Of a stretch of DNA of 27,173 nucleotides, positions 2,589 through 22,251 are shown piece by piece. The notes under the pieces are model-generated. The model saw nothing but the letters and a program-made list of their open reading frames with translations. It was not told where the DNA came from and did no database searches. A program made the position numbers and the translations under genes. The DNA is from Thermoproteota archaeon (GTDB lineage Archaea; Korarchaeota; Korarchaeia; Korarchaeales; Korarchaeaceae): contig WALU01000045.1 of the NCBI GenBank assembly GCA_015522685.1, positions 1 through 27,173 of the forward strand, read 5' to 3'. Position 1 is the stretch's first letter, and each line of letters begins with the position of its first letter.

Positions 2589-2644
2589 ATCTCTATTGAT
2601 ATATGAATGCGACCTCAGTTAAGGATCCGAGGGGGAGAACATAG

Positions 2645-3415: not shown

Positions 3416-3419
3416 GGGC

Positions 3420-5370: not shown

Positions 5371-5990
5371 AAATTATGCCTCTCTACTTTTACTATGCCT
5401 TCAGCTGCCTTCACGGGATCCTTACTTCTTAGGATGGATCTTCCAATTATCTCGAAATCGGCTCCAGCCTCCAAAGCGGATCCAGGCTTAGCTCCCTGAA
5501 ATCCTACACCTGGGGAGAATATCCTAACCTTAGGCAAGCGTCTCCTAGCTTCTCTAATCATCTCAGGCCTAGTTGCCCCGACAACTATCCCCCAGATATT
5601 CAAGAGATCTGCTATCTCCAATAGCTTGATGAAGTTTTCCCTTATCAGCCTGGCCTCAGGATGGCTCATTCCTGCAACTCCGATCAAGTCTAGTTTACTA
5701 TCATATCTCTTATGTCCAGTGAAGAGGTGGATTATTACTCCATCCATATTCATATCCTCAAATTTCCTTAATATATACCGGACAACATCAGGTATATCTG
5801 CTAGCTTAAAATCGGCTATCCAGTAATATTCAGGATACCTCTTTACTATCTCAGAAATGCCTTCCCATCCTATCATTAGACTAAGAGGAAAACCTACCTT
5901 AACGCCAGCTACCAGATCCTTTAAGCTATTTAGAATGTTATCCAGATCCCCAGAAGGAAAATCAAGGGCAAGAATGAGCCGAGAATCCAA
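5364..5990 (-). CDS. pyrF: Orotidine 5'-phosphate decarboxylase (true start may be 6023)
   Basis: LILALD, GVKVG, DFKLADIP, SPGVGFQG, IIGRSI motifs. Confidence 0.95.
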   Translation of the reverse strand: MDSRLILALDFPSGDLDNILNSLKDLVAGVKVGFPLSLMIGWEGISEIVKRYPEYYWIADFKLADIPDVVRYILRKFEDMNMDGVIIHLFTGHKRYDSKLDLIGVAGMSHPEARLIRENFIKLLEIADLLNIWGIVVGATRPEMIREARRRLPKVRIFSPGVGFQGAKPGSALEAGADFEIIGRSILRSKDPVKAAEGIVKVERHNLW

Positions 5991-6051
5991 ACGAGAAGAT
6001 CTCTCCAGAAGCTTGTTTTCTATTAGAACCCTTCCTTAAGCAAGGTTTTCT

Positions 6052-6066
6052 CCTTATAAATTCTAG
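6052..6066 (-). promoter_or_regulatory. Putative archaeal TATA box of the pyrF-E-B-I-K operon
   Basis: Minus strand reads CTAGAA-TTTATAA (TATA at 6054-6060). Confidence 0.55.
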
Positions 6067-6146
6067 GGGGTTGAATAGGAGTCCGCCTAGCCTACTTTTG
6101 ATGATAGTTACAGGAATGCCTAACTCCAAAGAGCCCATCGAGTGAG

Positions 6147-7445
6147 TTATGAAGGGACTATCTCCTTAAGGTGCTGTGTGGGAATGGACATTTCCCTATC
6201 CGGTCCAACGCCGATGAGAATTGTTTTAGCTTCTACTTCCTTCTCCACGAATGAAACGTAGTTCCTGACTTCCTCTGGTAAGGAGTTCCATCCCCCCTTC
6301 ACGAACTTCTTCCAATCATCTACTTCCCATCCTTCAAGCTCCTTGTATATAGGCCTAGCTTTCTCTAGCTCATTCACATAGGGGGGTGCTATCTCAACTT
6401 CCTCGCCATCAATCTCATAAGCTACAGCTATCTTAATCTTATCCAGCCCTGAAAGGACATCAAGCTTCCTCATGGCTAGGTAGCCTACACCATTAATCAT
6501 CGCGGAATACCTAAGCATTGGTAAATCTAGCCAACCGACCCTCCTAGGCCTGCCTGTGGTGGTCCCATACTCTCCGCCCTTATCTCTTATGTAATCAGCT
6601 ACATTTCCACTTAGCTCAGTGGGAAAGGGTCCCTTTCCCACCCTAGTGGTGTAAGCCTTCATAACTCCAACTACTGAATCTATTGCAAGAGGACTTATCC
6701 CAGCGCCTGTGCAAGCTCCCCCCGCCACGGGATTAGAGGAGGTAACGAAGGGGTAGGTCCCATGATCTACATCAAGCATAGTTCCTTGAGCTCCCTCGAA
6801 TAAAACGAACTTGCCTTCAGCGATCGCCCCGTTCACCTCCAAGTGATCATCGCCAACGAAAGAAGATAGAGAATTCCTCCATTCCTCTGCCTTAGTCAGC
6901 AATTCCAGATAATAATCATCAATGCTTCCAGTAAGTATGCCAGCATTTCTAAGTTCACTTTCCTTAATCTCCAATACCTCCTTCAATCTTTGAGGAAAAT
7001 TAGAGCTAAATAAATCGGCAACCTTCAGACCGGTTACCCTAGCCATCTTATCCTGATAAGCTGGTCCTATACCTCTCTTGGTCGTCCCTAGCCTCCCGCC
7101 AGATATGACGGAATCAAGCCCCTTGTGATAAGGTAGAAGGAGCGTAGCTTTGAGAGATACCAGCACGTCTATATTTCTGCCTCTAGATTTTAGATCTCTA
7201 AGCTCTTCTAGGAAGACTTCTGGGTCGAATGCTACTCCTGCACCTAAGACGCCTTTTTTTTCCCTAACAACACTTGAGGGAATCAAATGGAGTTTATACT
7301 CTTCACCATTTGCTACTACCGTATGACCAGCATTACTTCCACCGTTGTACCTTACTACTAAATTGGCCCATTCTGCAAGGTAATCTACCACAGCACCTTT
7401 GCTCTCATCACCGAATTGCATGCCAACAACAACTACTGCAGGCAT
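6147..7445 (-). CDS. purA: Adenylosuccinate synthetase (full-length 432-aa type)
   Basis: GDESKG P-loop, NAGHT, GTTKRGIGPAY, EGAQG, GTYPFVTSS, TTTGRPRRVGW. Confidence 0.97.
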   Translation of the reverse strand: MPAVVVVGMQFGDESKGAVVDYLAEWANLVVRYNGGSNAGHTVVANGEEYKLHLIPSSVVREKKGVLGAGVAFDPEVFLEELRDLKSRGRNIDVLVSLKATLLLPYHKGLDSVISGGRLGTTKRGIGPAYQDKMARVTGLKVADLFSSNFPQRLKEVLEIKESELRNAGILTGSIDDYYLELLTKAEEWRNSLSSFVGDDHLEVNGAIAEGKFVLFEGAQGTMLDVDHGTYPFVTSSNPVAGGACTGAGISPLAIDSVVGVMKAYTTRVGKGPFPTELSGNVADYIRDKGGEYGTTTGRPRRVGWLDLPMLRYSAMINGVGYLAMRKLDVLSGLDKIKIAVAYEIDGEEVEIAPPYVNELEKARPIYKELEGWEVDDWKKFVKGGWNSLPEEVRNYVSFVEKEVEAKTILIGVGPDREMSIPTQHLKEIVPS

Positions 7446-7591
7446 GATTCATTACCTTTATCTTCGCCAATTCTTAGATATAAGGAGAACGATTGAGGCC
7501 ATCTCCTAAGAAGTACATATGAATTAATCAAACAATAATCATAAAACCTGTTGCTTTTAGCTTAATCCAATTTCCATTACAGGGATAGTAT

Positions 7592-8140
7592 ATGGGTTTA
7601 ACCGATGGAAGGGGAAAGATAATTGAGGAGATAGTTGAGAAAGAGTACAAAATGTTCGAATCCCTGATAGTTAGAGACTTGGATAGATGCAAGGATAATC
7701 CTAGAACATTTAAGCTCGTTAGGTGGGCGTACTTCTCAGTTTTTTCTAATGAAGCACTTCAATCCTACTTGATGGATTTGGAGGAAGCAGAAAAGCATAA
7801 TAGAAACTTGTTAGAAGAGAAATATGCTAGAATAGATGAATTAATCCCTCGGATAAAGGAGAACTCGTTGATAGATAAGATAGTGGCAATAAGATTGGAG
7901 TGGATGAGGGAACTTGCTTCTAAATACCCTTATACTTTCCAGATGGATGATACAAGCTTTACCATATATCTAAGGAGCGAGCTAGAGACTTATTCTGATA
8001 GAACTCTAAAGCTGATTTATAGAGACCTCCAAAAAGCTTTGAAAGAAGGGAAAAATCTACTAAAAGAGCAGTATGAACATCTTTTCAGTAAGGTAGGTTA
8101 CAACTCTCTCGAAGAGGTCGAAAGAAGGAAAGTAGGCTAA
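7592..8140 (+). CDS. DUF4125-like protein of unknown function, internally duplicated
   Basis: SYLxDL...RNLLxEKYAR and YLRSELETYSDRTL...GKNL segments resemble DUF4125 as I recall it; its stop overlaps the convergent activase stop by 4 bp. Confidence 0.7.
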   Translation: MGLTDGRGKIIEEIVEKEYKMFESLIVRDLDRCKDNPRTFKLVRWAYFSVFSNEALQSYLMDLEEAEKHNRNLLEEKYARIDELIPRIKENSLIDKIVAIRLEWMRELASKYPYTFQMDDTSFTIYLRSELETYSDRTLKLIYRDLQKALKEGKNLLKEQYEHLFSKVGYNSLEEVERRKVG

Positions 8141-9036
8141 CCACCTACCCTAACCAGTAAATCATACTCCTCTAGCAGACCAACAACCTTGTTTATGAGT
8201 TGCTGGCTTGGCTGTTCGAATTTTTTCTGCGTTTTATCTAATCTCTCTGCCTTACTCACCCCTAATGGGTGGTATGGAAGCACATTTAACTGCTCTACGT
8301 TTCTGAATGTGGAAACAAACTCGCCCATAGCCCTAATGCTAGCTTCATCATCATTTACTCCCGGAATTAGAGGGAACCTTACCCATATTCTAGCCCCAAG
8401 ATCATCTAATAGCTTTAAATTGCTTAATATGAGATCATTCCTGACTTCCGTATACAACAGATGCTTTTTAGGATCCATTATCTTCAAATCATAGAGAAAA
8501 AGATCAGTAAATCTGCATACTTCTTTCATAACCTCCTTGCTGGCATATCCAGATGTATCAACTGCAGTATGTATTCCCTTGCACTTGAGCTCCTCAAGGA
8601 ACCTTACGACGAACTCATGCTGCATTAGAGGTTCTCCACCTGAAACAGTAACACCTCCTCCCGATTCATCGTAGAAAGGTCTATCCTTTTCTATCTCTTC
8701 AAGAAGTTCCTGAATTGTGTACCACTTCCCAGCCATCTCCCTAGCTCCAGTTGGGCAGTGCTCCACGCATATACCGCAATTATCGCATAGCTGCCTATTT
8801 GTAACCACCTTTTCATTGACTATACTTACCGCTTTCTGAGGGCAAACTTCCACGCATGTGCCGCAGATAATGCATCTACTCTCATAATACATCATCTCTG
8901 GATAGAATTCTTGTCCTTCTGGATTGTGGCACCACCAGCATCTGAGAGGACACCCCTTAAAGAAGATAGAAGTCCTTATACCAGGTCCGTCATGAATCGC
9001 ATATCTCTTTATGTCAAATATCAAGGCCTTTAGCAT
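8137..9036 (-). CDS. Glycyl radical enzyme activating enzyme (radical SAM, with 2x[4Fe-4S] ferredoxin insert)
   Basis: HDGPGIRT, GCPLRCWWCHNPE, CIICGTCVEVCP, CDNCGICVEHCP, GGVTVSGGEP; GGTGA RBS at 9041-9045. Confidence 0.95.
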   Translation of the reverse strand: MLKALIFDIKRYAIHDGPGIRTSIFFKGCPLRCWWCHNPEGQEFYPEMMYYESRCIICGTCVEVCPQKAVSIVNEKVVTNRQLCDNCGICVEHCPTGAREMAGKWYTIQELLEEIEKDRPFYDESGGGVTVSGGEPLMQHEFVVRFLEELKCKGIHTAVDTSGYASKEVMKEVCRFTDLFLYDLKIMDPKKHLLYTEVRNDLILSNLKLLDDLGARIWVRFPLIPGVNDDEASIRAMGEFVSTFRNVEQLNVLPYHPLGVSKAERLDKTQKKFEQPSQQLINKVVGLLEEYDLLVRVGG

Positions 9037-9055
9037 TTAATCACCAATTTAGCAC

Positions 9056-9079
9056 AAAAGAAGAAAAAGAAAGGAGAAA
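9056..9079 (-). terminator. U-rich terminator-like tract between GRE and activase
   Basis: Minus strand TTTCTCCTTTCTTTTTCTTCTTTT directly after the GRE stop. Confidence 0.45.
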
Positions 9080-9081
9080 TG

Positions 9082-11466
9082 CTAAATAGATTCATGCTCC
9101 ATTCTAGATATTATCTCATCTTGTAGGTCCTTGCCTATAGCGACGAAGAAATCGCTATACCCTGCTACCCTCACTAGAAGGTTTCTATATTTCTCAGGCT
9201 CTTCCTGAGCCTCTCTCAAGGTATCAGCGCTCACGACGTTGAACTGTATATGATGCCCACCCAGCTTGAAGAATGCCCTTATGAGATGAGCTAGCTTCCT
9301 TACATCCTCTTCAGTTTTAAGGGTTTGTGGAGAGAACTTCATGTTAAGGAGAGTCCCTCCTGTCTTTACATGATCCCACTTAGCTACGGATTTTATTACA
9401 GCGGTTGGCCCCTTCCTATCTGCTCCCTGAACTGGGGAAACTCCCTCAGAAACTGGCTCGCTAGCCTTTCTACCATCTGGCGTAGCCCCTACTACCTTCC
9501 CAAAGTATATGTGTACGGTAGTTGGGAGCAAATTAGCTCTATAGACGCCTCCTCTAGTGTTAGGTTTCCCATCTAAGAGTTTGACATAGATATCAACGAG
9601 CTTTATAGCTATCTCATCAGCATAATCATCATCGTTGCCATACTTAGGCGTCTTATTCCAGAGAATCTGTCTCAGTAATTCATATTCTCCTTCGAAATTG
9701 CTAGATAATGCCTTTAATAAGGTGTTCATGTTAAACGTCCTCCTATCAAATATGTGATACTTGATAGCAACTAGGCTATCGGTTATAGTTCCTAACCCAG
9801 TTCCTTGAATATAGCTTGTATTATACCTCGGACCTCCATTGTTGTAATCCTTACCCTTCTCTATGCAATCATCTATCAGTAGAGAGAGAAATGGCTGAGG
9901 AATATACTTAGCATACAATCTTTCTATGATATTATTTCCTATTATCTTGAGATTAATGAAATATTTGAGCTGCTTCTTATACACCTCAAAAAGCTCCTCG
10001 AAAGACTTGAACTCTCTAGGATCTCCAGTCTCTATTCCTACCTTCATTCTTGTTCTTGGATCAAAGCCGTTGTTTAAGGTAATCTCTAGGATCTTCGTCC
10101 AATTCATATAACCAGTGAGACCAACAGTCTCCTTACCAAATGCGCCTATTGTGACGCAACCGCTAGGTCCACCTAGTCTAGCATCTTTCAGGGTTTTACT
10201 CTGCCTCAGATGCTCCATTATTATAACATCTGTATTGAATATGGATGGCTTGGGGTGACCAGTAGCTATTATCCTGAGAGCCTTGAGAAGAAGCCAGTCT
10301 GGGGTTTTCTCACTTATCTGAATGCATAAATTGGGCATCATAATTCTAAGCTCATCTTCAACCTCTAATATAAGATCCGAAAGCTCATTGGCCACTGGTC
10401 TCCCATATTCATCAACTCCACCTAGATTTGGAGTGCTGAAGTCTTGATACGTGTTGCTCTGCTCCTTCGTCACTCCTACCTTCGGAGGAGCCGGTTGGTT
10501 ATGAATCTTTATCCATAAACAGGCTAACAGTTCCTTAGCTTGCTCCCTAGTTAATCTGCCCTCTTCTAGATCCTTCTTATAGAAGGGATACCACCATAGA
10601 TCTATCCTCCCAGGATTGAAGGAGTCCCAAACGTTTGTCTCTGACGTAACCCCTAGGTGAATGAACCAGTACATCTGTAATGCTTCCCAGAAGTTCCTAG
10701 GGGCATGAGCCGGAACCCAGCTGCAGACCTCATCTATCTGCTCTAACTCCTTCTTTCTTTTGGGATCTACCTCCTCATCTGCCATCCTCTTTGCTAGATC
10801 CGCATATCTATTGGCGAAATTTATCATAGCATCTATTGTTATTTCCATTGCTAGGAGTTCTTGATCCTTCTCCCAAGCTTCAGGATCATCTAACCAGTCT
10901 ATTTCTCTTCTTCTCTCTTGAACCTTCCTCTTGAAATCTAGAAGGCCCATTTTGTAGATCTTATCATCCATTATAGCATGACCCATAGCCCTCTGTTCCA
11001 TGAACTCTGTGAATACACCAGCCTTAAATGCTTTCATCCAAGCTTCTGGCATATTCCTGAAGATCATGCTTCTCATATCCTTATTCTTCCAGAAAGGAAT
11101 TATCTTCTCTTCATATATCTTCTTGACCTCATCCTTTACTATATAGGGGTTATCTTTCATGGAGTTGAGATTCTCTAAATCCTCCAAAGAGTGAAGGCAT
11201 TGCTCTGGATATGTGGGAACCGCTCTTGGTCCCCTTCCCTTCTCCCCCACTATGAGTTCACCGTCCTCTATACCTATTGTTTTATTCTCCAGATAATACT
11301 TGAAGGCCATAGCCCTAAGGACTGGAGGAGATAGACCCCTCGCCTGATCGCTTTTATAAAACTGAGTTATAAGAGTAGCACGCTCAGGATCTATATAAGG
11401 AGTTCTTAAGCTTTGCTCACGGAGCTTAGATATCCTCCTATTAAGACCTGTGAGAATAGTTACCAT
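9082..11466 (-). CDS. Glycyl radical enzyme, HypD (4-hydroxyproline dehydratase)-like with a non-canonical GCVT Cys loop
   Basis: RVAGYS (Gly769), SGCVT (Cys437). HypD-type segments EFMEQRAxGH, NQPAPPKVG, FGKExxxLTGY, LPTTxHIYFG, DHxKTGGTLLN. Confidence 0.92.
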   Translation of the reverse strand: MVTILTGLNRRISKLREQSLRTPYIDPERATLITQFYKSDQARGLSPPVLRAMAFKYYLENKTIGIEDGELIVGEKGRGPRAVPTYPEQCLHSLEDLENLNSMKDNPYIVKDEVKKIYEEKIIPFWKNKDMRSMIFRNMPEAWMKAFKAGVFTEFMEQRAMGHAIMDDKIYKMGLLDFKRKVQERRREIDWLDDPEAWEKDQELLAMEITIDAMINFANRYADLAKRMADEEVDPKRKKELEQIDEVCSWVPAHAPRNFWEALQMYWFIHLGVTSETNVWDSFNPGRIDLWWYPFYKKDLEEGRLTREQAKELLACLWIKIHNQPAPPKVGVTKEQSNTYQDFSTPNLGGVDEYGRPVANELSDLILEVEDELRIMMPNLCIQISEKTPDWLLLKALRIIATGHPKPSIFNTDVIIMEHLRQSKTLKDARLGGPSGCVTIGAFGKETVGLTGYMNWTKILEITLNNGFDPRTRMKVGIETGDPREFKSFEELFEVYKKQLKYFINLKIIGNNIIERLYAKYIPQPFLSLLIDDCIEKGKDYNNGGPRYNTSYIQGTGLGTITDSLVAIKYHIFDRRTFNMNTLLKALSSNFEGEYELLRQILWNKTPKYGNDDDYADEIAIKLVDIYVKLLDGKPNTRGGVYRANLLPTTVHIYFGKVVGATPDGRKASEPVSEGVSPVQGADRKGPTAVIKSVAKWDHVKTGGTLLNMKFSPQTLKTEEDVRKLAHLIRAFFKLGGHHIQFNVVSADTLREAQEEPEKYRNLLVRVAGYSDFFVAIGKDLQDEIISRMEHESI

Positions 11467-11591
11467 ACTAAGTCGCCGCGTACTAACCCTAAGGCAACCT
11501 TATTACTTTTATCATGGACCTTCGGCATGTAATATTGTTTATATCAGTAATTATTATTTGCGCAAGAGCCTCATTTTTAAATTGATTTAAA

Positions 11592-11723
11592 ATGGGAAAC
11601 TTCATGACCACTATGAGGCTAGGCATGCCAGAGGGCATTGCAAAACTGTCTATTTTCTTGACATCTGAGGATCCTGAAAATAACAGGCCAGCATATGCAA
11701 CACAAACAGCAGATTATCTGTAA
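11592..11723 (+). pseudogene. C-terminal remnant of a short-chain dehydrogenase/reductase
   Basis: Manual translation MRLGMPEGIAKLSIFLTSED, then after a frameshift ITGQ (11680-11691); matches the SDR tail RxGxPExIAxxxxFLxSxxxxxITGQ. Confidence 0.6.
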
Positions 11724-12083
11724 GCACCTACTGGCTACTTTATGAACTCCTTAAGACTCATACACAAAAGTAGTGGCTCCTATTCAAGAACCAGTGAATG
11801 AAACCATTTGTAAAAAATAAATACATTATAATGCCATTAAAATATGCAATATTGTTGTCATAATGTCTTCATAGTACGAAATTTCTGTCGAAATAATGGA
11901 AAGAGCGATTGCTGCTTTGACCCCCTCATATAAATATCTATTTAATTTAAGATAATGTAACTTAAAAATGCATGATCTTAGTCTAGAAAGTATTACGCTC
12001 ATATATGCCCTATCTCAAATTCATACATATTCAATCAATGTTATCATGCTGACTGATATGAAGAAAGAAAAGATAAATTCTAA

Positions 12084-12101
12084 CCGAAAAGGTTATTATA
12101 T
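12084..12101 (+). promoter_or_regulatory. BRE/TATA promoter of the ABC transporter operon
   Basis: CCGAAAAGG-TTATTATAT about 28 bp upstream of ATG 12129. Confidence 0.6.
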
Positions 12102-12128
12102 CTCCTTAAGACCTAGCTGAGGGTTAAG

Positions 12129-13466
12129 ATGAGACGTAGAGGTTTGTCAATCTCAGCATTAGCTATTTTCTTAATAGTTGTTCTCATCATAGGTATAGGT
12201 ATAGGTTATTTAATTCCTAGAGGTGCGCCAACAGCAGTAGTAACTAAAACAGTCACTACAGGTGCGGGAACTACAGCTACTATAACGAAGACAATTACTG
12301 CTGCAGGTGCAGGAGGTTTACCTTCAGAAATCCCAATAGGCGTCTTAAACGCACTTAGTGGCAGCTTCGGAACATTTGGAACGAGAGGACAGGCAGCCCT
12401 AGAGGTAGCTGAGAAGGATATAAATGATTACGTCAAGAAATTAGGTCTTAATGTAAGATTTAAGTTCTATTACGAGGATTATGCTACGAAGCCTGATGTA
12501 GCCCTTCAGAAAGTCCAATCTCTGGCTGCAAGAGGGATAAAGGTTATAGTAGGCGGTCTCATAAGTGGCGCAGTCAAACAGGTATCTTCCTATGCAAATA
12601 CTAACAAGATAGTGATAATAGCTGGCGCATCGACAGCTCCTAGAGAGTCTGTAGCTCCGCCTGGAGGCTATGTATTCAGGGTACTACCTCCATGTGGGGC
12701 TGAGGGTGAAGCTCTGGTAGCAGTTCTCAAGGATAAAGGGATAAAAAATGTTGCTATGATAACTACAGAGGATACATACAGCCTCTCCATTCGCAAAGCA
12801 TTCGCTTCTGCAGCAAAGGCGGCAGGCATCAACATAGTGCTAGATACCACATTCCCGCCGGAAACAAAGGACTTTACTGCTCACTTAGATGCTCTGGAAC
12901 GCGCTGTAACTCCTTACGTACAAAAAAGTGAGCCTATAGCTGTATTCATGAATGTATGGGAGAATCATATACCTCTTCTATTAGATCAAGCTAATAAGAG
13001 AAAAAGTCCCCTTATGAACTTACTTTGGATAGTTCCTGATACAATTCCACTGAGCACGATAGTTCTAAAGGAATCTGGAAAACTAGCAGAGAAGGTTAAA
13101 CTGATAGGACCTCTATTCACGGCCCCAGCGTCAAGTGCTCATAGGCATGTTAGTGAAGCTGTAAGGGCTAAGTTAGGACAGGAACCTGATGTATATGCCC
13201 TTGCTGGTTACGATGCCGCTTGGATTGCAGCTCTCTCCATACTCATGAGTCGTAGTTATGATGCTGAGGCCATAAAGAACACAATACCCCTTGTTTCAAA
13301 GCTTTACTGGGGAGCTACTGGAAATATAGAACTAGATCAGAATGGAGATAGAAAAGTCATGGATCAGGAGCTATATGCCGTTGTTAACGGCCAATGGAAG
13401 GTAGTCGCTGTATACAAATCTCTTGAGAAGAGCTTAACATGGGTTGTACCGATCAATGTCCCATGA
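12129..13466 (+). CDS. Liv-type amino acid ABC transporter substrate-binding protein, membrane-anchored
   Basis: N-terminal TM helix and Thr-rich linker; IPIGVL..LSG, ED...KP, STAP, YDAAW, GATG.I.LDQNGDR. Confidence 0.9.
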   Translation: MRRRGLSISALAIFLIVVLIIGIGIGYLIPRGAPTAVVTKTVTTGAGTTATITKTITAAGAGGLPSEIPIGVLNALSGSFGTFGTRGQAALEVAEKDINDYVKKLGLNVRFKFYYEDYATKPDVALQKVQSLAARGIKVIVGGLISGAVKQVSSYANTNKIVIIAGASTAPRESVAPPGGYVFRVLPPCGAEGEALVAVLKDKGIKNVAMITTEDTYSLSIRKAFASAAKAAGINIVLDTTFPPETKDFTAHLDALERAVTPYVQKSEPIAVFMNVWENHIPLLLDQANKRKSPLMNLLWIVPDTIPLSTIVLKESGKLAEKVKLIGPLFTAPASSAHRHVSEAVRAKLGQEPDVYALAGYDAAWIAALSILMSRSYDAEAIKNTIPLVSKLYWGATGNIELDQNGDRKVMDQELYAVVNGQWKVVAVYKSLEKSLTWVVPINVP

Positions 13467-13473
13467 GTTATAT

Positions 13474-13499
13474 CCCTTTTCTTTATTTTATTTATTTCT
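13474..13499 (+). terminator. U-rich terminator-like tract after the binding-protein gene
   Basis: CCCTTTTCTTTATTTTATTTATTTCT follows the stop. Confidence 0.45.
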
Positions 13500-13549
13500 A
13501 TATAGAATAGCTATTAGTTACGATTTAGGTCGTTAGCTAGGTGATTCTT

Positions 13550-14332
13550 ATGGATAGCACCATTGATTACAGTCAAGTAATCTTACACACAGATAAACTT
13601 ACGAAGAGGTTTGGTGGTCTTATAGCTGTCAATGAGGTCACTCTTAATGTTAAAAGAGGTTCAATTACGCTATTAATAGGTCCTAATGGATGCGGTAAAA
13701 CTACATTTGTTAATACCATTACTGGATATTATAAACCCGATGGAGGCAGGGTATTCTTCGATGGAGGGGATATTACCGGTTTACCCCTAAATAAAACATA
13801 CGAGAAAGGATTAGTAAGGACTTTTCAAATACCATTTCCCTTTCTTAAGCTGAGCGTTCTGGAGAATCTATTAGTTGCTGCCAGAAACAATCCTGGAGAG
13901 AAATTCACGAGGCATCTTATAAAAAGCTCGTGGATAAAAGTGGAGGAGCAACTCACCGAGAAAGCCTTCAACATCATGAAGATGCTTGGAATTGAGGAGG
14001 ATTGGGATAAAGAGCCAGAATCATTAGACGCTGGGGCATTGAAGCTCATTGAAATAGGGAGGGCTCTAATATCTGATGCGAAGATGATTGCTTTGGATGA
14101 GCCGATAGCGGGAGTCAACCCAAAGCTGGCTCATAATATCTTTTCACATATAGTTAACCTAAGGAAGGAACTAGACATTACTTTTCTTATAATAGAGCAC
14201 AGGCTGGATATAGCCCTGAGGTATGTCGACTTTGTCTATGCAATGTATCGAGGAAAGATAATCTCTCAGGGAACTCCAGAAGAGATAGCAAGGGATAAGG
14301 AGGTGAGAGAGGTTTATGTGGGTGGTGAATAA
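13550..14332 (+). CDS. livG: Liv-type ABC transporter ATPase (LivG-like)
   Basis: KRFGGL, GPNGCGKTT, RTFQ, LDEPIAGVNP, IIEH; ATG 13550 follows AGGTGA. Confidence 0.88.
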   Translation: MDSTIDYSQVILHTDKLTKRFGGLIAVNEVTLNVKRGSITLLIGPNGCGKTTFVNTITGYYKPDGGRVFFDGGDITGLPLNKTYEKGLVRTFQIPFPFLKLSVLENLLVAARNNPGEKFTRHLIKSSWIKVEEQLTEKAFNIMKMLGIEEDWDKEPESLDAGALKLIEIGRALISDAKMIALDEPIAGVNPKLAHNIFSHIVNLRKELDITFLIIEHRLDIALRYVDFVYAMYRGKIISQGTPEEIARDKEVREVYVGGE

Positions 14333-15042
14333 TGCTAAAGGTAAAAAATCTCAACTCAGGTTATGGAAAGCTTCACGTGCTCTATGATGTTTCCTTAGAA
14401 TGTGAAAAAGGAGAGATAATTTCAGTAATTGGTCCTAATGGTGCAGGTAAAACGACTCTACTAAATAGCATATTTGGAATAGCAAATATATACTCAGGTT
14501 CTATCACGATAGACGGAAAGGAAACCACTAGACTTCCTGCCTACGTTATTTCTCGAATGGGGGTGGCATACGTCCTACAAATGCTCAATGTGTTTGCTCA
14601 ATTGACAGTGGAGGAAAACCTGAGGATTTCTGCTGCATATTCCAAGGTAAAAGATATCAATAAAGCTACGGAGAAAATATATGAAATATTTCCAATACTT
14701 AGGGAAAGAAAGAAGCAACTAGTTGGTACCCTCAGTGGAGGAGAGAGGCAGATGCTAGCTATAAGCATAGGGCTCATAAGGAATCCGAAAATACTTCTAC
14801 TGGATGAACCTACTGCTGGCCTAATGCCTCTATATGTTAAAATGATAGCTAACAAGATCAAGGAGATAAGAGATATGAGGGGCATCAGCATAATTCTGGT
14901 GGAACAGAATGTCCAAAAAGCTTTAGAGCTAGCTAATAAAGTCTATGTACTCGTTAGCGGCCAAATAATATTCAAAGGAAGTCCATCTGAGCTCAAAGAG
15001 AAGCATGAGATAATGAAGTTATACCTCGGTGTAGGTGAGTAA
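14332..15042 (+). CDS. livF: Liv-type ABC transporter ATPase (LivF-like)
   Basis: GPNGAGKTT, LSGGERQMLAI, LLDEPTAGL, LVEQN. Confidence 0.9.
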   Translation: MLKVKNLNSGYGKLHVLYDVSLECEKGEIISVIGPNGAGKTTLLNSIFGIANIYSGSITIDGKETTRLPAYVISRMGVAYVLQMLNVFAQLTVEENLRISAAYSKVKDINKATEKIYEIFPILRERKKQLVGTLSGGERQMLAISIGLIRNPKILLLDEPTAGLMPLYVKMIANKIKEIRDMRGISIILVEQNVQKALELANKVYVLVSGQIIFKGSPSELKEKHEIMKLYLGVGE

Positions 15043-15044
15043 CA

Positions 15045-15959
15045 ATGTTTGGAATAGGACTACCCACTATTGTAGGAGGGCTCACATGGTCTGCTCTCCT
15101 ATCCCTCATGGGTATTGGTATAACTCTCCTATATAGAACCACGAAAGTTCCAAACTTCGCCCATGCATCTTTTGTTACGACGGGGGTATATGCTTCCTTT
15201 ACGCTCTCGCTTCTGGGCTTCCATCCGTACTGGGGTATACTCGCTGGATTTATTTTAACTGGATTGGAGGCATTACTACTCTTTTACTCTATTTTAGAGC
15301 CCCTGAGAAGGAGAAAATCATCGGTATTCATACTAATGATCGGTACGCTCGCCTTCGACATTCTATTCTATGGTATACTAAATATCTATGCAGATTATCT
15401 ACAAACAGTTTTTAAAGCATCGGCTAGAGCGGTGTATCTAGCTCCGAAGGATTTCTCTATTATGGGAATCCCAGGAATAATGTTCATGTCTTTAGGAATG
15501 CTAGTAATCTCAGTACTAGGGCTATACTTGCTACTAAATAGAACCACTGTTGGTATAGCTTTAAAGGCATGCATGGAGAACACGGCGCTTGCTCAAACAA
15601 TTGGAGTGAATGTGAGCCTAATGCTCATGCTTTCATGGTTTATAGCTGGAGGGATTGCAGGCATCTCTGGAGCTCTACTACCAATGTACATTGAGACTAG
15701 TCCTGATATAGGTGTGCTTCTAGTGGCTGAAATGTTCTGTGTAAGCATCCTCGGAGGATTGGAGCAAGTCTATGGGGCGCCTCTAGGAGGATTCCTGATG
15801 GGCTTCGCTGAGGTCGTACTTACTTCATGGTTAGCCTCAGAGGTAGGCCCTTGGATAATTTCGTATACCCCATTACTACCCCTTGGAGCAATGGCTCTTA
15901 CGCTAATATTCATTCCAAAGGGATTAGCTACCATAAAAATTAGAAGAAGAGAGGGGTGA
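15045..15959 (+). CDS. livH: Liv-type ABC transporter permease (LivH-like)
   Basis: GITLLYRTTKVPNFAH, ENxxLAxxxGVN, SILGGL; hydrophobic. Confidence 0.88.
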   Translation: MFGIGLPTIVGGLTWSALLSLMGIGITLLYRTTKVPNFAHASFVTTGVYASFTLSLLGFHPYWGILAGFILTGLEALLLFYSILEPLRRRKSSVFILMIGTLAFDILFYGILNIYADYLQTVFKASARAVYLAPKDFSIMGIPGIMFMSLGMLVISVLGLYLLLNRTTVGIALKACMENTALAQTIGVNVSLMLMLSWFIAGGIAGISGALLPMYIETSPDIGVLLVAEMFCVSILGGLEQVYGAPLGGFLMGFAEVVLTSWLASEVGPWIISYTPLLPLGAMALTLIFIPKGLATIKIRRREG

Positions 15960-17011
15960 ATGAGATGTCTGTATGGAGCGACATAATACTATTTACAGTA
16001 GATCTCCTAGCCCTTTTTGGCGTTTATCTGATAATTAACATAAGCCTTAACATACAGAGAGGCTTCGCTGGTATACCTAACTTCGGTTTAATGTTTGCTA
16101 TAGCAGGGGGAGCTTATATAACTGGGGCTGTTGCTACTAGATTAGCTCTGGTCATGTTGGGAATGCATACGAACTTAGATCCCATCTTTGATAACATACC
16201 TGTTCTCTCCAAGGTTGATCCACTCTTGCAATCTCAGTCTCTTACTTCGATAGCGCTGATGATAATCCTATTAATAATAGGTGCAATCTTCGGCGCCATT
16301 TTAGGGCTTATACAGTTAGGCCCAGCAATAAGGCTAAGAGAGGATTACTTAGCTATAACCCTCCTAGCATTTGCAGAGATGATCAACGTTATAGCCGTGG
16401 CATATAAGCCATTCATCGGCGGAATTACTGGTGTGCAAGTACCAGATGTATTTGCTTGGTCAGGAGAGTATAGATTCTATATTGCTACGGCAGCAATATT
16501 GGTTGTTGCGGCGATATCCTACGTATATGCTGAATTTCTAGGTAGATCTCCTCTCGGCAGAACAATGAAGGCTATTAGAGAAAACGAAGTAGCTGCTATG
16601 GCTTTAGGGAAGAATCTAGTTAAATACAGGGCAATCGCCATGGTAATAGGGTCAGCTTTCTGCGGAATGGCTGGCGTGCTCTGGACCCTCTATGGAGATA
16701 CTGTAACCCCCACATATCATAGGTTCTACTGGACATTCCTTCCATGGTTAATGGTTCTTCTTGGAGGCTTAGGAAATAATAAAGGAGCCCTGCTAGGTAC
16801 ACTCGTCTTTACAGTATTAGATAAGCTCATTATTTACTACAAACATTCCTTAGCGGGAATGCTTCCCTTTGATGTAGTCTGGCTTGATCAAGTGTTGCTC
16901 GGCCTGATCACTGCTATAATCCTTATATATAGGCCGCAGGGTCTACTCGAAGAAAAACCCTATGTACCCAAAGAACTAGAAGCCAAATTGAAATCTATTG
17001 AGAAGAAATAG
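15956..17011 (+). CDS. livM: Liv-type ABC transporter permease (LivM-like); start may be ATG 15965
   Basis: SLNxxxGFAGIPNFG, RLREDYLAITLL, AIRENEVAAxALG, LGGLGNNKG, RPQGL. Confidence 0.88.
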   Translation: MNEMSVWSDIILFTVDLLALFGVYLIINISLNIQRGFAGIPNFGLMFAIAGGAYITGAVATRLALVMLGMHTNLDPIFDNIPVLSKVDPLLQSQSLTSIALMIILLIIGAIFGAILGLIQLGPAIRLREDYLAITLLAFAEMINVIAVAYKPFIGGITGVQVPDVFAWSGEYRFYIATAAILVVAAISYVYAEFLGRSPLGRTMKAIRENEVAAMALGKNLVKYRAIAMVIGSAFCGMAGVLWTLYGDTVTPTYHRFYWTFLPWLMVLLGGLGNNKGALLGTLVFTVLDKLIIYYKHSLAGMLPFDVVWLDQVLLGLITAIILIYRPQGLLEEKPYVPKELEAKLKSIEKK

Positions 17012-17142
17012 TTTTACTCGTATATCCTCTCCTTTTATTTTTAATTAAACTAAATGATGGATGATTTTCTTCAATTTCTTTTATCTCAGGTCAATATATT
17101 TATAAGTGATGGCATTAGTTTCTATACTAGAAAAATCAGGAA

Positions 17143-17820
17143 GTGAGTCTTCTAAGGACTGGTAAATCTCCACTGCGTTCGAAACTCATGTAACTGGTGG
17201 ACCTCTCAGGATAATATCAAGTGAGCTTCCTGAAATACCTGGCAAAACTATACTGGAGAAAAGATTCTATTTCATGAAGAATCTGGGCTATATTAGGAGA
17301 TCCCTCATGTAGGAGCCAAGAGGGCATGCCATATACGGTGCTGTAACAACAGAGTTAGTATCACTAAAAACTATTGATGTGATATAGCTCCATAATAAAG
17401 TTATACCGTTTTGAATATACGGTAATGTCTCTTGGAGGAAAGTATCCTTGGTATTAACTATAATTATTAGCACAAAGCAGTTATTTTGAGATCAAATAGA
17501 TATGCCTTCAGGCCTCGTAAGAGTGCTCGTGGAAATAAAAGAAGAGAATATTAGAAGGATTTTTCCATAACGTTCTTTCCTTTTGTCTATCTAATCTAAT
17601 GGATGAAGTTATTGAGATACCTAAAATCGAAAGAAGTTAGGTATGATATCACATATGGAAGCAATTCCTCTATTTTCATTAACTCAGGGGATGTTAGACT
17701 GAAATACACTCATAATTACTAAGGGAGTCTCATAGATAGAGATATAAATAAAGAGAGCCATCCTGAAGAGCGTAAATATGAGACGCTTCCTTCGAAGAAA
17801 ATCTAAGTTTCTTTTATATT
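17143..17820 (+). pseudogene. Proline racemase / hydroxyproline epimerase / 3-hydroxyproline dehydratase family pseudogene (not in ORF track)
   Basis: Manual translation in shifting frames: THVTGGPLRII...PEIPGKTILEKRFYF...IRRSLM*EPRGHAIYGAV...VI*LHN; IDMPSGLVRV...HNVLSF; EVRYDITYG; IKRAI...FEENLSFL. Stops at 17310 and 17385, several frameshifts, MCGH motif and C-terminus lost. Confidence 0.85.
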
Positions 17821-17843
17821 AAGTAAAAAATAAATGAGAAATG

Positions 17844-19721
17844 CTACCCTCCTTTCCTCAAAATTTCAGTTATTTCCCTAACTCTGAAGCCCTCCAAATT
17901 TAGGCTCTTAGCTGCATCATTTAGCATCGCGTAACAAAATGGACAAGCAACCACCAGCTCTTTAGCTCCAGAGTCAAGGGCTTCCCTAACTCTTTCTTTT
18001 GCCATAGTGCTCTCTCCTATTTGATACCAATAATTGGCTCCGCCTCCACCGCAACAGAATGTATCTTTCCCATGCCTTGGCATCTCCCTAAATCCATCTA
18101 CATGCCTCAAGATCTCTCTCGGCTCCTCTATTATTCCATTAAATCTGGCTAGATTACAGGGGTCATGGAATGTAATCTCGCCTTTCTTCTCAGCCTCTAA
18201 CTTTCCTTCCTTTACTAAACTAGAGAGCAGTTCTACATGAGATATTACTTTGACGCTCCAATCCCTCACTATCCTAGGATACTCATGCTTAAAGACGGTT
18301 AAGCCGTGAGGGCATATCACAAGGAGCTTCTTTACTCCTAATTCCTTAAACAGCTCTGCATTTGCTAGAGCATACTCTTGAAACATGCCTTCCTCTCCCA
18401 ATCTCCTAGCTGGTTCTCCGCAGCAGGTTTCCATCTCTCCAAAAGCTGCAATCTTAATCCCAGTGCTTCTCAGTAAATCAACTAGCTTTGTTACGATCTT
18501 CCTACCTACGGGATCAAAGGAATACTGGCAGCCTACCCAAATATAATAATCTGGATCTTCATCGCTCTTAAGCCAGCTTAACCTTCCCCTCTGGGGGACT
18601 GAGAGGGCATTATGATATCTTCTTAATCCATTAAGAAGCTCCCTCATTTTCTTATCTATCCTTCCCTCAGATACTAAGGAGCGTCTCCTTTCCATCAAGT
18701 ATGAGAATGGACTTATGTAATTTGGGCATGCAGATACACATGCACCGCAAGAGACGCAGGACCAGACGGTCTCATCACCTAGCTCGTATTCTCTCTCTAA
18801 AATTGCCTGCTTCAGTCCTGATACAACATCCTTAGGAGAGAGGGGCTTGCCAGTTGCATAAGCTGGGCATGCCTCTGTACAGCGGCCGCACTTCACACAT
18901 GCAGCCAAGGCGTACTTCTCATACCAAGGTATATCTTTAGCTTCTTGGAAACCCAGCTTTACCTCCTCGAGATTCTCTAACTCTTCCAGTAGGAATGGCT
19001 CTCTTGGGAATTTGACAAGGTCGCTCCCTAGAGAAGAGGTGATTATTGCTATTAGAGAATGGAGAAGATTGCTATAGGGTAGATAAGCTACCATGGAGAA
19101 TGCCGTTAGAGCATGGCTCCACCAGATCCACGGATAAAATGGGAGCATGTAAGGCCCAACCATGCCAGATATCAGGTATCCTATGAAAGAGTAAGGACTA
19201 GCAGCATTTGGATGGGCGTAAATTCTCATGGATTCAAGAAGGAAGCCGGTAATTCCTATATATAGGAGGCCTAACAGTAAAGCTTTTCCTTCATTATCTC
19301 TCGTGGAGAAGAAGGCTAATATCCCTATGAGGAGAATAAGGCCAAATAGATCCATTATTAATTCGAATGCTGAGTAAGTTCCATCGAAAAGCAGCCTTAT
19401 ACCAAAATGAGCCAAAATATCAGTTTCTAGAAAAACTGTTAAGGTTCCCAGGAGGAGAACGAAGATCCCAATAAATAAGAGAAGATGGGGTATGCCTCTC
19501 GGTTGCTCAACAACTCTCTTTTGGCTGAACACCCTGATGAGGCCTCTTTTTACCTTCCCCACATTAAGTTGCAATAAAGCCTTATCAAGTTCAAATTTCT
19601 CAGTAATTCTCCATAGGCCATAGCAGAAAATCAGGGTAAATGGAATCAGTATGAGATACATAGCTAACTGGGTCCATCCCGGAAGTAAAGGAAAGCTTTC
19701 CCTAATTAGCAAGAGAGCCAC
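17844..19721 (-). CDS. Membrane-bound Fe-S oxidoreductase, HdrF/FadF/EMO-like (cytochrome b-like TM domain + 2x[4Fe-4S] + two CCG domains)
   Basis: Hydrophobic N-terminus with His in TM segments; CVKCGRCTEACP, CVSCGACVSACP, ETCCGEP, HDPCNL, FCCGGGG, CPFC. Confidence 0.88.
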   Translation of the reverse strand: MALLLIRESFPLLPGWTQLAMYLILIPFTLIFCYGLWRITEKFELDKALLQLNVGKVKRGLIRVFSQKRVVEQPRGIPHLLLFIGIFVLLLGTLTVFLETDILAHFGIRLLFDGTYSAFELIMDLFGLILLIGILAFFSTRDNEGKALLLGLLYIGITGFLLESMRIYAHPNAASPYSFIGYLISGMVGPYMLPFYPWIWWSHALTAFSMVAYLPYSNLLHSLIAIITSSLGSDLVKFPREPFLLEELENLEEVKLGFQEAKDIPWYEKYALAACVKCGRCTEACPAYATGKPLSPKDVVSGLKQAILEREYELGDETVWSCVSCGACVSACPNYISPFSYLMERRRSLVSEGRIDKKMRELLNGLRRYHNALSVPQRGRLSWLKSDEDPDYYIWVGCQYSFDPVGRKIVTKLVDLLRSTGIKIAAFGEMETCCGEPARRLGEEGMFQEYALANAELFKELGVKKLLVICPHGLTVFKHEYPRIVRDWSVKVISHVELLSSLVKEGKLEAEKKGEITFHDPCNLARFNGIIEEPREILRHVDGFREMPRHGKDTFCCGGGGANYWYQIGESTMAKERVREALDSGAKELVVACPFCYAMLNDAAKSLNLEGFRVREITEILRKGG

Positions 19722-19773
19722 CTGCTTAGGACACTAGAATGCATTTTTTATTTTTTCATAATCACGATAAGCG
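19722..19773. promoter_or_regulatory. Compact 52-bp divergent promoter region
   Basis: Central TTTTTTATTTTTT tract about 20-30 bp from both start codons. Confidence 0.45.
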
Positions 19774-21054
19774 GTGAAGCACTTGGAAGCGGATGTGCTA
19801 GTTGTAGGAGCTGGTATACTAGGTTTAGCTACCGCATACAACATCCTAAGGATTAACCCGAAGACTAGCGTCCTTATAGTTGATAAAACGGGAGATGTTG
19901 GTCAGGGTGCAACAGCAAAAAGCGCTGCTGGCTTTAGGGCGGAGTTATTCACCTCCCCCACTAATCAAATGCTTTCAAACACCTCAGTAAACTTTTATCT
20001 TCATGCTCAGAAGGAGGAGGGTTACGACTTAGGTATAGAACTGGTTGGCTATCTCATCTTGAGAAGCAGGGATCAATTTGAAGAGATAGCCGATATCGCT
20101 AACCTCCTTGAGAAGAAAGGAGCCTTAAAGATCTATAGAAAAGAGGAGTTGAAGAATCTACTGAAGATGAACTATGAATTTGATGGCGACGAAGAGGCAG
20201 AGTTACTGGGGGTCAAGAATATAGATTATGGCTTATTTGGGATAAAATGTGGTTATATAGATGCTGATAAGCTTGCTTACTATTATAGAGATAAGATAAA
20301 AGAGATGGAAGGAAACTTCCAGTTTAACACGAAGGTTGAGAAGATAATAGTTGAACCCGAGGTAAAGCTGGGCATCCCTAGGGAGCCGAGAGCATGGCAA
20401 AAGGTAAGATTTACTGGAATTGAGACAAATAAAGGTTTCATTAAAGCAAAAAATTTGGTTATAGCTGCAGGAGGATGGACGAATCAGCTTTTAGATTCAA
20501 TAGGAATTGATTGTATATCTAAGCCTAAGAAAAGGCAAATTTTCACCTTTAGACCCAAGACCGAGGAGCAGAAGGCTCTACTGAATACAAAGGGTTTTAG
20601 CGAGGAAGGCATACTGCCCTTCACATTCCTCCCAACAGGCCACTATATAAGGGCCGATAAAAGGGATGGAACATTCTGGTTCAGCTATTCCGATGAGATG
20701 AGGCCTTTCTCAACAGATGACAAACCTGAAGAGAAGTATTATTACGATAACATATATCCGATAATAGTAAAGTACTTCCCACAGCTAGAAGGCGCCAGAA
20801 TTGATAACATGTGGGCTGGCCTCTACATGATTAACTCTGTAGATCACAATCCAGTGGTATTCAAGAGATCTAATATGGTTGTGGCGACTGGTGCGAGTGG
20901 AAGTGGTATACTAAAAGGAGATGCTATAGGAAGAATAGCTGCAGCTTTAGTTTACAATGAACCATATGCAAACCTATTTGAAGGTGAGGAAATATCCTCC
21001 AGCAAGCTAGAAGTTATCGGAAGATCCCTTGAGGTTGAGAAGTTTGTCTTCTGA
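19774..21054 (+). CDS. FAD-dependent oxidoreductase (DAO family), most like Aeropyrum/Pyrobaculum single-subunit dye-linked L-proline dehydrogenase
   Basis: GAGILG Rossmann motif; EEAELLGV, DADKLAYYY, LGIPREPRAWQ, KPKKRQIF, GSGILKGDAIGRIAAA and C-terminal ExFVF match my recollection of A. pernix ProDH. Confidence 0.8.
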   Translation: MKHLEADVLVVGAGILGLATAYNILRINPKTSVLIVDKTGDVGQGATAKSAAGFRAELFTSPTNQMLSNTSVNFYLHAQKEEGYDLGIELVGYLILRSRDQFEEIADIANLLEKKGALKIYRKEELKNLLKMNYEFDGDEEAELLGVKNIDYGLFGIKCGYIDADKLAYYYRDKIKEMEGNFQFNTKVEKIIVEPEVKLGIPREPRAWQKVRFTGIETNKGFIKAKNLVIAAGGWTNQLLDSIGIDCISKPKKRQIFTFRPKTEEQKALLNTKGFSEEGILPFTFLPTGHYIRADKRDGTFWFSYSDEMRPFSTDDKPEEKYYYDNIYPIIVKYFPQLEGARIDNMWAGLYMINSVDHNPVVFKRSNMVVATGASGSGILKGDAIGRIAAALVYNEPYANLFEGEEISSSKLEVIGRSLEVEKFVF

Positions 21055-21564
21055 TAGACTTGCTGAGATAGACTTACTGAAATTGTTTCTCCTCATCCTT
21101 TTTACATAAGAGAAATATAATATGGATGCTACAAATTTAACAGCCGAAATCTTGAGTGGATGTCTAATACTAGAGTATATAAAATGAAAAGAAGCAAGCA
21201 TCATAATAAAGAAGGTGATTGTGGAGAGAAGATAGCTCAGGATCTCGCTAGGCATATGCCATGAGTCAAATCCCCTAAAGCTAGTAAGTACGCGAATTTC
21301 TTAATGGAAACAGTAAAAGAACCTATGAACGGATAACTCCTTTCTTGCACTATATTTTAAAACAGAATAATGCCGCAGGACACTTCTTTCATTTCCGTTA
21401 GCCCAGCTCGGTATATGAGCGAAATCTCTATTCAGAGAGATAAAGCTTAGCGGTTGATGTATTTATACCGTGCCTCGCATACCAATTAGCTGTAACGAGT
21501 ATGTAAGACTCGTCTATCCCACCAATAAGAATATATAGCACTACCTCTTTCAATACCGATATGC

Positions 21565-22251
21565 ATGAACAAGGTTTTAATAGTTACAGCGGTAACCATC
21601 GTCGTTTTGTTTATAGCAGGACTGTTTTTCCTTACTGAAATGAGCAACATATCCAATAAGGCTTCCTTTAAAGATAGATATTCCTCGATAGATAAGCTTA
21701 CTTTCTCTATAGGCAAGGGAAGCATTCTTAAGCAGGCTTTCAAGGTATATCTATCTTACAAGAATAAGAGCAGGGAAGTGCAGAGAGCTAACAAGACCGT
21801 TACTGTAAAAGACTTTTCTTGGCCTAAATATCATATGTGTATAGCTGAGAACAAGTCTATCCAAAATAAAGGTTGCTATGATATCCCGTTTACGTTAGTG
21901 GCCTTGCCTAAGGAACTTATAGGTGTAGATTCAGTAGATGTTCCACTATCACTCGGTAAGGTATCATCCATCACCCTGAAGTATTATGGAAGGACAAACA
22001 TCGATATGCCGTGGGGATCGCAGGTAGTGGCTAATTATACGAACCTATCTATAGGATATCCCCGAACGGGTATGAATACTACAACCCTCGCATACTTCAA
22101 CTATAAGGAAGGATACCTTGTTAAGATAGAGGTGAGTGTGACGAATGGAAACCTGACTTCAACAGCCATTTTCCAGCTTATGGAGCCTCCGCAACTGTAT
22201 GCTCCAATTCAGATTAAAAAACCGGAAAAATGGATATGGGGAGAGGGTTAA
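21565..22251 (+). CDS. Hypothetical membrane-anchored or secreted protein
   Basis: 228-aa ORF, N-terminal hydrophobic helix, several NxS/T sequons; no recognised family. Confidence 0.7.
   Translation: MNKVLIVTAVTIVVLFIAGLFFLTEMSNISNKASFKDRYSSIDKLTFSIGKGSILKQAFKVYLSYKNKSREVQRANKTVTVKDFSWPKYHMCIAENKSIQNKGCYDIPFTLVALPKELIGVDSVDVPLSLGKVSSITLKYYGRTNIDMPWGSQVVANYTNLSIGYPRTGMNTTTLAYFNYKEGYLVKIEVSVTNGNLTSTAIFQLMEPPQLYAPIQIKKPEKWIWGEG

Follow-up and report, generated by a model that had tools for sequence, protein, structure and literature searches.

Mosaic origin of a putative hydroxyproline/proline locus in an archaeal genome: a HypD-family cassette with a Thr-containing Cys loop beside a conserved proline dehydrogenase-like/Fe-S pair

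Introduction

Several genes on a single archaeal contig point to the metabolism of hydroxyproline and proline. Do they form one catabolic island, or were they brought together from separate sources? The window studied here is the complete 27,173-base contig (WALU01000045.1, C45) of a 1.48-Mb genome (G000) that is 92% complete. It contains genes for a HypD-family glycyl radical enzyme (GRE) and its activase, a DUF4125 protein, a Liv-type ABC importer, the remnant of a proline-racemase-family gene, an L-proline-dehydrogenase-like (ProDH-like) flavoprotein and a membrane Fe-S oxidoreductase. Genes were called from a listing of open reading frames (ORFs) and from Pfam and NCBIfam scans of the window. 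Every item in the gene list of an initial annotation is present in the sequence. Our results show a mosaic locus built from parts of known kinds, an archaeal 3-hydroxyproline/proline cluster and a HypD-family cassette. Two features stand out. The radical enzyme belongs to a clade with Thr in its Cys loop, and the ProDH-like flavoprotein is paired with the membrane Fe-S protein.

The initial annotation called the island undescribed, which overstated the case. Archaeal HypDs were already noted in 2018 (PMC6219649), and a 2014 paper had pointed out putative PFL genes at the flanks of archaeal 3-hydroxyproline/proline clusters (PMC4141209).

Results

The proline-related genes were joined by insertion

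Comparison with other genomes of the genus revealed the ancestry of the gene order. In G012 (complete; locus L134) and G011 (L135), purA is followed directly by the gene for the HdrD-like membrane Fe-S protein and then by the gene for the ProDH-like flavoprotein, a member of the DAO family. The G012 backbone continues past the DAO gene with Elp3, argH and argG, matching the window. Therefore, the window has 10.4 kb of extra DNA (7446-17843), which separates purA from the core ProDH-like/Fe-S pair. This accessory segment is composed of two cassettes. One contains the DUF4125, activase and GRE genes, and the other contains the Liv importer and the racemase-family gene. The proline/hydroxyproline genes were joined by insertion and not co-inherited as a single island. 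No tRNA, integrase, Rfam family or meaningful flanking repeat was found at the segment, and a search for a second genomic copy of its spacers or a mobile-element signature found neither.

Other assemblies bear on contiguity. Logan contigs of one DNA run, which may be the source sample, cover 30/30 bins of 6000-21500, and a single Logan contig spans the purA/DUF4125 junction (7361-7836). No RNA run was listed among those containing the sequence. The same proteins are present on an 82-kb contig of another record.

The same genes are dispersed in G012 and G015. In G012 the ProDH-like gene is located at 159 kb, the GRE gene at 527 kb and the Liv cassette at 807 kb, 280-370 kb from one to the next. 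Only G019, the nearest relative, shares the set, and its layout matches the window on both sides. One G019 contig reads purA-DUF4125-activase-GRE. A second contains the genes for the substrate-binding protein (SBP) and LivGFHM followed by an intact dehydratase gene. The last 174 bases of this contig match the HdrD-like gene at its 3' end, and it overlaps the contig bearing HdrD-DAO.

GRE loci of other species were sampled as the best 80 of at least 592 confirmed HypD-family matches. An activase gene is found in 63 of these 80 loci, and weak matches to the SBP, DAO and HdrD proteins in 1/80 each. DUF4125 is found in 0/80. Within the genus, the DAO gene is present in 18/20 genomes and the GRE gene in 9/20. 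The initial annotation regarded the set as a candidate catabolic island. As a co-inherited unit it does not hold, because the ProDH-like/Fe-S pair is present with or without the GRE, and the complete set is found elsewhere only in G019, is scattered in G012 and G015, and is absent from the 80 sampled loci.

GRE and racemase-family genes do tend to occur together. Among 21 genus genomes, window genome included, 8 contain both and 8 contain neither; the GRE gene occurs without the racemase-family gene in 2 and the reverse is seen in 3. All but one of the five discordant genomes are below 85% complete. Since the genomes are kin, this pattern represents a few independent events at most.

The DUF4125-activase-GRE cassette

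The first cassette starts with the DUF4125 gene (7592-8140, + strand; PF13526, 168.5 bits), which is convergent with the radical SAM activase gene (8137-9036, - strand; PF04055). The GRE gene, which encodes a C-V-T Cys loop, is adjacent (9082-11466, - strand; NF043068). The best NCBIfam match of the activase is T4HPD_activ_SAM, the HypD activase model, with 383.9 bits and under the cut-off of 425; TIGR02494 scores 350.5. The protein contains a CX3CX2C motif (CPLRCWWC) and two ferredoxin-type CX2CX2CX3C motifs. The radical SAM motif, the auxiliary ferredoxin-like clusters and the adjacency to the GRE gene identify it as a GRE-activating enzyme.

DUF4125 is found in 3/61 related genomes. These are the window genome, G019 and G011, exactly the same-genus genomes with a C-V-T (CVT) radical enzyme, and it adjoins the activase gene in all three. 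G059, a distant CVT genome, is without DUF4125. In G011 the GRE cassette has other surroundings, and the Liv cassette is not among them. Because DUF4125 tracks the CVT GRE and always adjoins the activase, the three genes appear to have been acquired together as one cassette, foreign to the native GRE of the genus, which has a C-V-E (CVE) loop. A protein-atlas search with DUF4125 returned other DUF4125 clusters only, all bacterial. A metagenome scan with it returned three loci, one of them a weak match. On the metagenome contig L140, a DUF4125 homologue with 73% identity is broken into three ORFs and may be a pseudogene or reflect sequencing errors.

The radical enzyme has an altered Cys loop

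The GRE scores 1138.7 bits against NF043068 (glycl_HYPD; cut-off 1100) and passes this equivalog threshold. It matches the Clostridioides difficile HypD (CdHypD) structure 6VXC with 985.9 bits, and the identity is about 60% by a rough reading of the alignment. We mapped residues by eye from the 6VXC alignment, in which the chain number is the native number plus 20. Ten of 11 HypD active-site residues are kept, the equivalents of Phe152, His160, Asp278, Ser334, Asp339, Phe340, Cys434, Tyr450, Thr645 and Gly765. In an alignment of 23 CVT sequences (A1), the substrate-contact residues F155, H163, D281, S337, D342, F343, Y453 and T649 are invariant. The radical residues G769 (the Gly765 equivalent, in RVAGYS) and C437 (the Cys434 equivalent) are likewise invariant.

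The Cys loop differs. It reads GCVTIG, placing Thr439 where HypD has Glu436, and departs from the CXE pattern. This GCVT in place of GCVE is absent from the initial annotation. In CdHypD, Glu436 hydrogen-bonds the leaving hydroxyl, and the E436Q substitution leaves no detectable activity (PMC7077986, Table 2). A 2026 review describes CXE as retained without exception by the six C-O eliminases and the three isomerases (PMC13450708).

Thr-loop enzymes form one clade

Thr is not an error, because 90 of the 120 best database homologues carry it at this column; the other 30 have Glu. In an outgroup-rooted FastTree of 131 rows, all 92 Thr sequences form one clade with a support of 100, nested among Glu-type sequences. 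The pattern fits a single derived Glu to Thr change. Additional substitutions are specific to the clade. Ala replaces Thr after the His160 equivalent, Gln replaces Glu before the Ser334 equivalent, and Ser replaces Gly438. Further clade-specific changes are located at window positions 147 and 202. Named archaeal members are from Theionarchaea, Bathyarchaeota, Thorarchaeota and Promethearchaeota (Asgard). Named bacterial members are from Aminicenantes, Synergistota, Acidobacteriota, Planctomycetota and Zixibacteria. The HypD cut-off (NF043068) is passed by 9/9 CVT proteins (window included) and 5/5 CVE proteins tested; therefore, automatic annotation hides the Thr/Glu difference.

The two types are distributed differently within the genus. 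The Glu-type GREs of G012, G014, G015, G016 and G017, plus those of G030 and G033 in the sister genus, form their own basal clade. The Thr type is found in the window genome, G019 and G011; GRE fragments in G004 and G006 were left out of the typing. A CVE copy alongside the CVT gene is found in 0/8 CVT genomes examined. Xaa-Pro (M24) peptidase genes are located within 6 kb of 5/29 CVT loci and 6/50 CVE loci, a count in which ten loci were left untyped by Cys-loop pattern. M3-like peptidases are found near 6/29 CVT loci, all six in Planctomycetota. The shared peptidase neighbors and the lack of CVT/CVE co-presence favor a similar physiological role. The strict Thr conservation and the co-varying neighbor residues favor a functional shift. 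We put the chance that the CVT enzyme runs the same reaction as HypD at about even. No paper describing a Thr-loop HypD clade was found in the literature searched, which excluded subscription papers and supplements.

Other neighborhoods of GRE genes were also recorded. At eight archaeal CVT loci, mostly Asgard (L003, L004, L005, L007, L009, L010, L016 and L042), no activase gene was found within the flanks examined. At several of these, for example L003, L016 and L042, the GRE gene adjoins ribosomal protein, archease and FtsZ genes. At the genus Glu-type loci L103 (G012) and L101 (G016), genes for a PALP (serine/threonine dehydratase-like) protein and a trypsin-PDZ protease are found nearby, which echoes a remark by Watanabe on flanking genes (PMC4141209).

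The importer cassette contains a decayed dehydratase gene

The second cassette is separated from the GRE gene by a 662-base spacer. Its five Liv-type ABC genes (12129-17011, + strand) are oriented divergently from the GRE gene. The first encodes a HAAT/Liv-type SBP (12129-13466, + strand; PF13458, 136.4 bits) with an N-terminal membrane anchor, formed by one predicted transmembrane (TM) helix, and a Thr-rich linker. LivG, LivF, LivH and LivM homologues follow (two ATPases and two permeases; 13541-17011, + strand). The SBP is 93% identical to its orthologue in G019 and 50% identical to those in CVE-GRE genomes. For the Liv proteins, NCBIfam gives best matches to generic LivG/F/H/M and to urea-type models, none of them reaching the cut-off of the model.

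An 832-base stretch 3' of LivM contains no intact gene. A tblastn search with the G019 orthologue identified in it a proline-racemase-family pseudogene (17115-17737, + strand), which matches residues 1-210 of the 348-residue protein at 51% identity. It is interrupted by at least six in-frame stops and one frameshift, and its C-terminal 140 residues are gone. The missing part bears the second catalytic residue of the Cys/Thr pair. The intact G019 orthologue (L132:5140-6186) matches 6R76 with 601.6 bits and contains both STGCGH and DRCPTGTG, the Cys/Thr pair.

An SDR remnant listed by the initial annotation is present, though tiny. It is located inside the GRE-SBP spacer (11616-11755, + strand) and not 3' of the racemase-family fossil. 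It corresponds to residues 217-263 of the G011 SDR (L099:8784-9578), about 45 residues of the C-terminus. The tblastn match is weak evidence (E = 3e-5), and the remnant appears real but marginal.

The association between importer and dehydratase genes is seen repeatedly. The SBP and racemase-family genes are 3.7-4 kb apart in G012, G015, G016, G017, G001 and G019. In G012 and G015, OCD/mu-crystallin and M20 amidohydrolase genes precede the Liv operon, and the dehydratase gene and an amino-acid permease gene follow it. The Thermococcus 3-hydroxyproline/proline clusters described by Watanabe et al. contain a dehydratase, an OCD-type reductase, an L-proline dehydrogenase and transporters (PMC4141209, PMC4364671). 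The importer cassette matches these clusters. G040, a genome of another family, has a row of genes (L149, C8:25000-36700) made up of Liv ATPases and permeases, a 488-residue ORF, a member of the racemase family and a homologue of the DAO protein with 46% identity.

The ProDH-like flavoprotein is paired with a membrane Fe-S protein

The FAD-dependent, DAO-family flavoprotein (19774-21054, + strand; PF01266) matches 3AXB/3VQR with 251 bits, and the next match is 45.8. Its AlphaFold model (pLDDT 80.3) superimposes on 3AXB with a Z score of 42.6 and an rmsd of 2.4 Å over 405 residues at 36% identity. By its title, the 3AXB entry is the Aeropyrum pernix dye-linked L-proline dehydrogenase. The next structural match, the Pyrococcus horikoshii L-proline dehydrogenase, is about 9 Z units below (Z 33.7). 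Similarity to the A. pernix type thus extends over the full-length sequence and the fold, and is above that to other DAO-family enzymes. On the basis of the model, we assign the protein as a homologue of the A. pernix-type L-proline dehydrogenase, with L-proline as the putative substrate.

The divergent neighbor (17844-19721, - strand) encodes an HdrD/EtfD/FadF-like membrane Fe-S oxidoreductase with two PF02754 stretches and Fer4 domains. Four TM helices are predicted in it. It contains CX2CX2CX3C motifs and CCG domains, two of each, and matches 9OJN, an 'Iron-sulfur-binding reductase', with 210 bits. The two CCG domains, two [4Fe-4S] motifs and the membrane domain place it among HdrD/EtfD-like proteins. 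The divergent pair is adjacent in 15/15 family genomes with readable flanks (window 17844-21054; L133, L134, L135, L147, L151, L152 and L108-L116). Adjacency is seen in 0/3 more distant loci. The pair is a core part of the family backbone. We infer that it forms a membrane-linked proline dehydrogenase module. We know of no natural electron acceptor for the A. pernix dye-linked L-proline dehydrogenase, and the conserved pairing suggests the HdrD/EtfD-like protein as a candidate. No electron-transfer flavoprotein genes were seen in the window.

Flanking genes

The accessory segment and the core pair are located between housekeeping genes. Amidohydrolase, pyr and purA genes occupy 218-7445 (- strand). 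The closest named relatives of the window purA are from Korarchaeum species, with 68-71% identity, and on this basis we take the host to be a Korarchaeum relative. Past the DAO gene are a membrane-anchored ORF and then Elp3, argH and argG. The 228-residue ORF at 21565-22251 has one N-terminal TM helix and no Pfam or NCBIfam match, and is kept at the same position in G012 (152 bits). Between the amidohydrolase gene and pyrK, a 1.18-kb stretch (1460-2644) contains no evident coding frame. The two genes adjoin each other in G012 and G019, unlike in the window. A second copy of the stretch was not found in the genome.

Discussion

Our analysis suggests a pathway for the assembled locus. We think it probable, though far from certain, that the locus, mosaic in origin, imports hydroxyproline or proline, converts it to pyrroline-5-carboxylate (P5C) and proline, and oxidizes proline at the membrane. 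The core divergent pair is located beside purA in the family, and the two cassettes lie between them in the lineage of the window genome and G019. The racemase-family gene of the Liv cassette decayed later in the window genome, and is intact in G019. The importer may take up hydroxyprolines or proline freed from peptides. The activated GRE would dehydrate a 4-hydroxyproline-type substrate to P5C, and ProC, encoded elsewhere in the genome (256.8 bits, over its cut-off), would reduce P5C to proline. The ProDH-like enzyme would then oxidize proline and pass the electrons to the membrane Fe-S protein. A route from hydroxyproline through P5C to proline is likely.

The initial annotation held that three genes point to proline-ring substrates. 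Our results agree. The GRE is in the HypD family, the flavoprotein resembles 3AXB closely in fold, and the racemase-family gene co-occurs with the GRE. The annotation also had the radical step pass electrons to the membrane. This part finds no support, since HypD-type dehydration is redox-neutral and yields no electrons (PMC7077986). Electrons for the membrane would therefore come from proline oxidation and not from the radical step.

Several observations weigh against the proposed pathway. Dehydration of 4-hydroxyproline is not assured, because E436Q CdHypD is inactive and the GRE has Thr in place of this essential Glu. The solved relatives of the SBP are all distant (46 bits or less), and for this reason we infer its ligand. 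A PF00171 aldehyde dehydrogenase and an OCD gene were not found in the 92%-complete genome, and the 3-hydroxyproline branch is broken there. GRE-SBP adjacency is seen in the window genome only; the G019 spacer is unassembled and its contig ends do not align with the window spacer. On two short metagenome contigs, DUF4125 adjoins neither a GRE nor an activase gene.

Could the genes nevertheless be one co-evolved, undescribed catabolic island, in which the membrane protein receives its electrons from a radical step? All of them are located inside 13.5 kb, and the G019 layout is the same on both sides. However, the ProDH/Fe-S pair occurs across the genus irrespective of the GRE, the parts are far apart in G012, the sampled GRE loci include none with the full set, and HypD-type chemistry supplies no electrons. 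We regard this explanation as highly improbable. At the other extreme, the juxtaposition could be meaningless, if a variable spot beside purA gathers accessory genes that have nothing to do with one another, and if the amino acids taken up by the Liv system are ordinary ones. The two gene fossils in the segment, the separate context of the G011 cassette and the generic or urea-type matches of the Liv proteins are in line with this. The recurring gene combinations argue otherwise. The SBP is linked to a 3-hydroxyproline dehydratase gene in at least seven genomes, G040 again combines Liv, racemase-family and ProDH-like genes, and the same combination occurs in Thermococcus according to Watanabe et al. 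(PMC4364671, PMC4141209). Genus-level co-occurrence of the GRE and the Liv/racemase cassette points in the same direction. A chance assembly of this kind is unlikely.

A more serious question concerns the radical step itself. The CVT enzyme may not be a trans-4-hydroxy-L-proline dehydratase. It could act on another proline-like substrate, or catalyze a different radical reaction, without a need for the Cys-loop Glu. Thr is present in 92/92 members of a monophyletic clade, changes co-vary directly beside the His160 and Ser334 equivalents and at Gly438, E436Q CdHypD is inactive (PMC7077986), and the CXE pattern is common to the reviewed eliminases and isomerases (PMC13450708); all of this favors the alternative. 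On the other hand, the enzyme retains 10/11 HypD residues, and prolidase-type neighbors are common to CVT and CVE loci. The two types never occur in one genome (8/8 examined), as expected of isofunctional variants, and the leaving hydroxyl might still be positioned by the hydroxyl of Thr acting with the His160 equivalent. We consider a changed reaction or substrate possible but doubtful. Equally tentative is a wider proposal, that the HypD annotation conceals a distinct GRE activity in the CVT clade. This activity would be the first of the eliminase type to work without the Cys-loop Glu, and its substrate would be a proline derivative that is not free trans-4-hydroxy-L-proline. It would be widespread in archaea of anoxic sediments and vents (Asgard, Bathyarchaeota, Theionarchaea and Korarchaeum relatives) and in bacteria.

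The locus is informative in several respects. A large clade is automatically named 'trans-4-hydroxy-L-proline dehydratase' without the residue essential in CdHypD. This leaves two possibilities: the role accepted for Glu436 does not hold generally, or many sediment archaea and bacteria carry wrong annotations. To our knowledge, the A. pernix-type proline dehydrogenase class is known only with artificial dyes, and the ProDH/Fe-S pairing suggests a natural electron acceptor for it. In addition, the locus supplies a specific archaeal candidate, whose substrate class is plausible, among PFL-like GREs, for which the 2026 review lists no archaeal member with a characterized function (PMC13450708).

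Comparison with known systems

The closest characterized relative of the window GRE is C. difficile HypD, which Levin and colleagues reportedly described in 2017 together with its activase and the P5C reductase. The two share the equivalog score, an adjacent activase gene, the Gly and Cys radical residues and eight substrate-contact residues, and proC is present in the window genome. The window enzyme differs in having Thr for Glu436, and residues 161, 333 and 438 are changed clade-wide. Its host is archaeal, proC is not adjacent and a DUF4125 partner gene is present. HplG (7VUA), HpyG (8ID1) and HpzG (8IOF) share the GRE fold and a proline-derived substrate class. They are much farther from the window GRE, with 391, 458.8 and 433.4 bits, respectively, compared to 985.9 for HypD. 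All three retain CXE, unlike the window GRE (PMC13450708).

The Thermococcus clusters similarly place a Cys/Thr-type dehydratase gene beside amino-acid transporters and an L-proline dehydrogenase. The G012 version also contains the OCD-type reductase, and 'putative PFL' genes were reported near the archaeal clusters (PMC4141209). The window differs in that its dehydratase gene has become a fossil, and an OCD gene was not found. The window ProDH is of the single-subunit A. pernix type rather than hetero-oligomeric, and is paired with a membrane Fe-S protein.

The A. pernix L-proline dehydrogenase (3AXB/3VQR) is in the same length class as the window flavoprotein, in addition to the sequence identity and Z score given above. 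The window homologue differs in having a conserved divergent HdrD/EtfD-like gene, whose product is the candidate acceptor. We take this membrane protein to resemble the EtfD, FadF and EMO-type oxidoreductases, with which it shares an N-terminal membrane domain, two [4Fe-4S] motifs and two CCG domains. Unlike these, it is paired with an amino-acid dehydrogenase in place of an electron-transfer flavoprotein.

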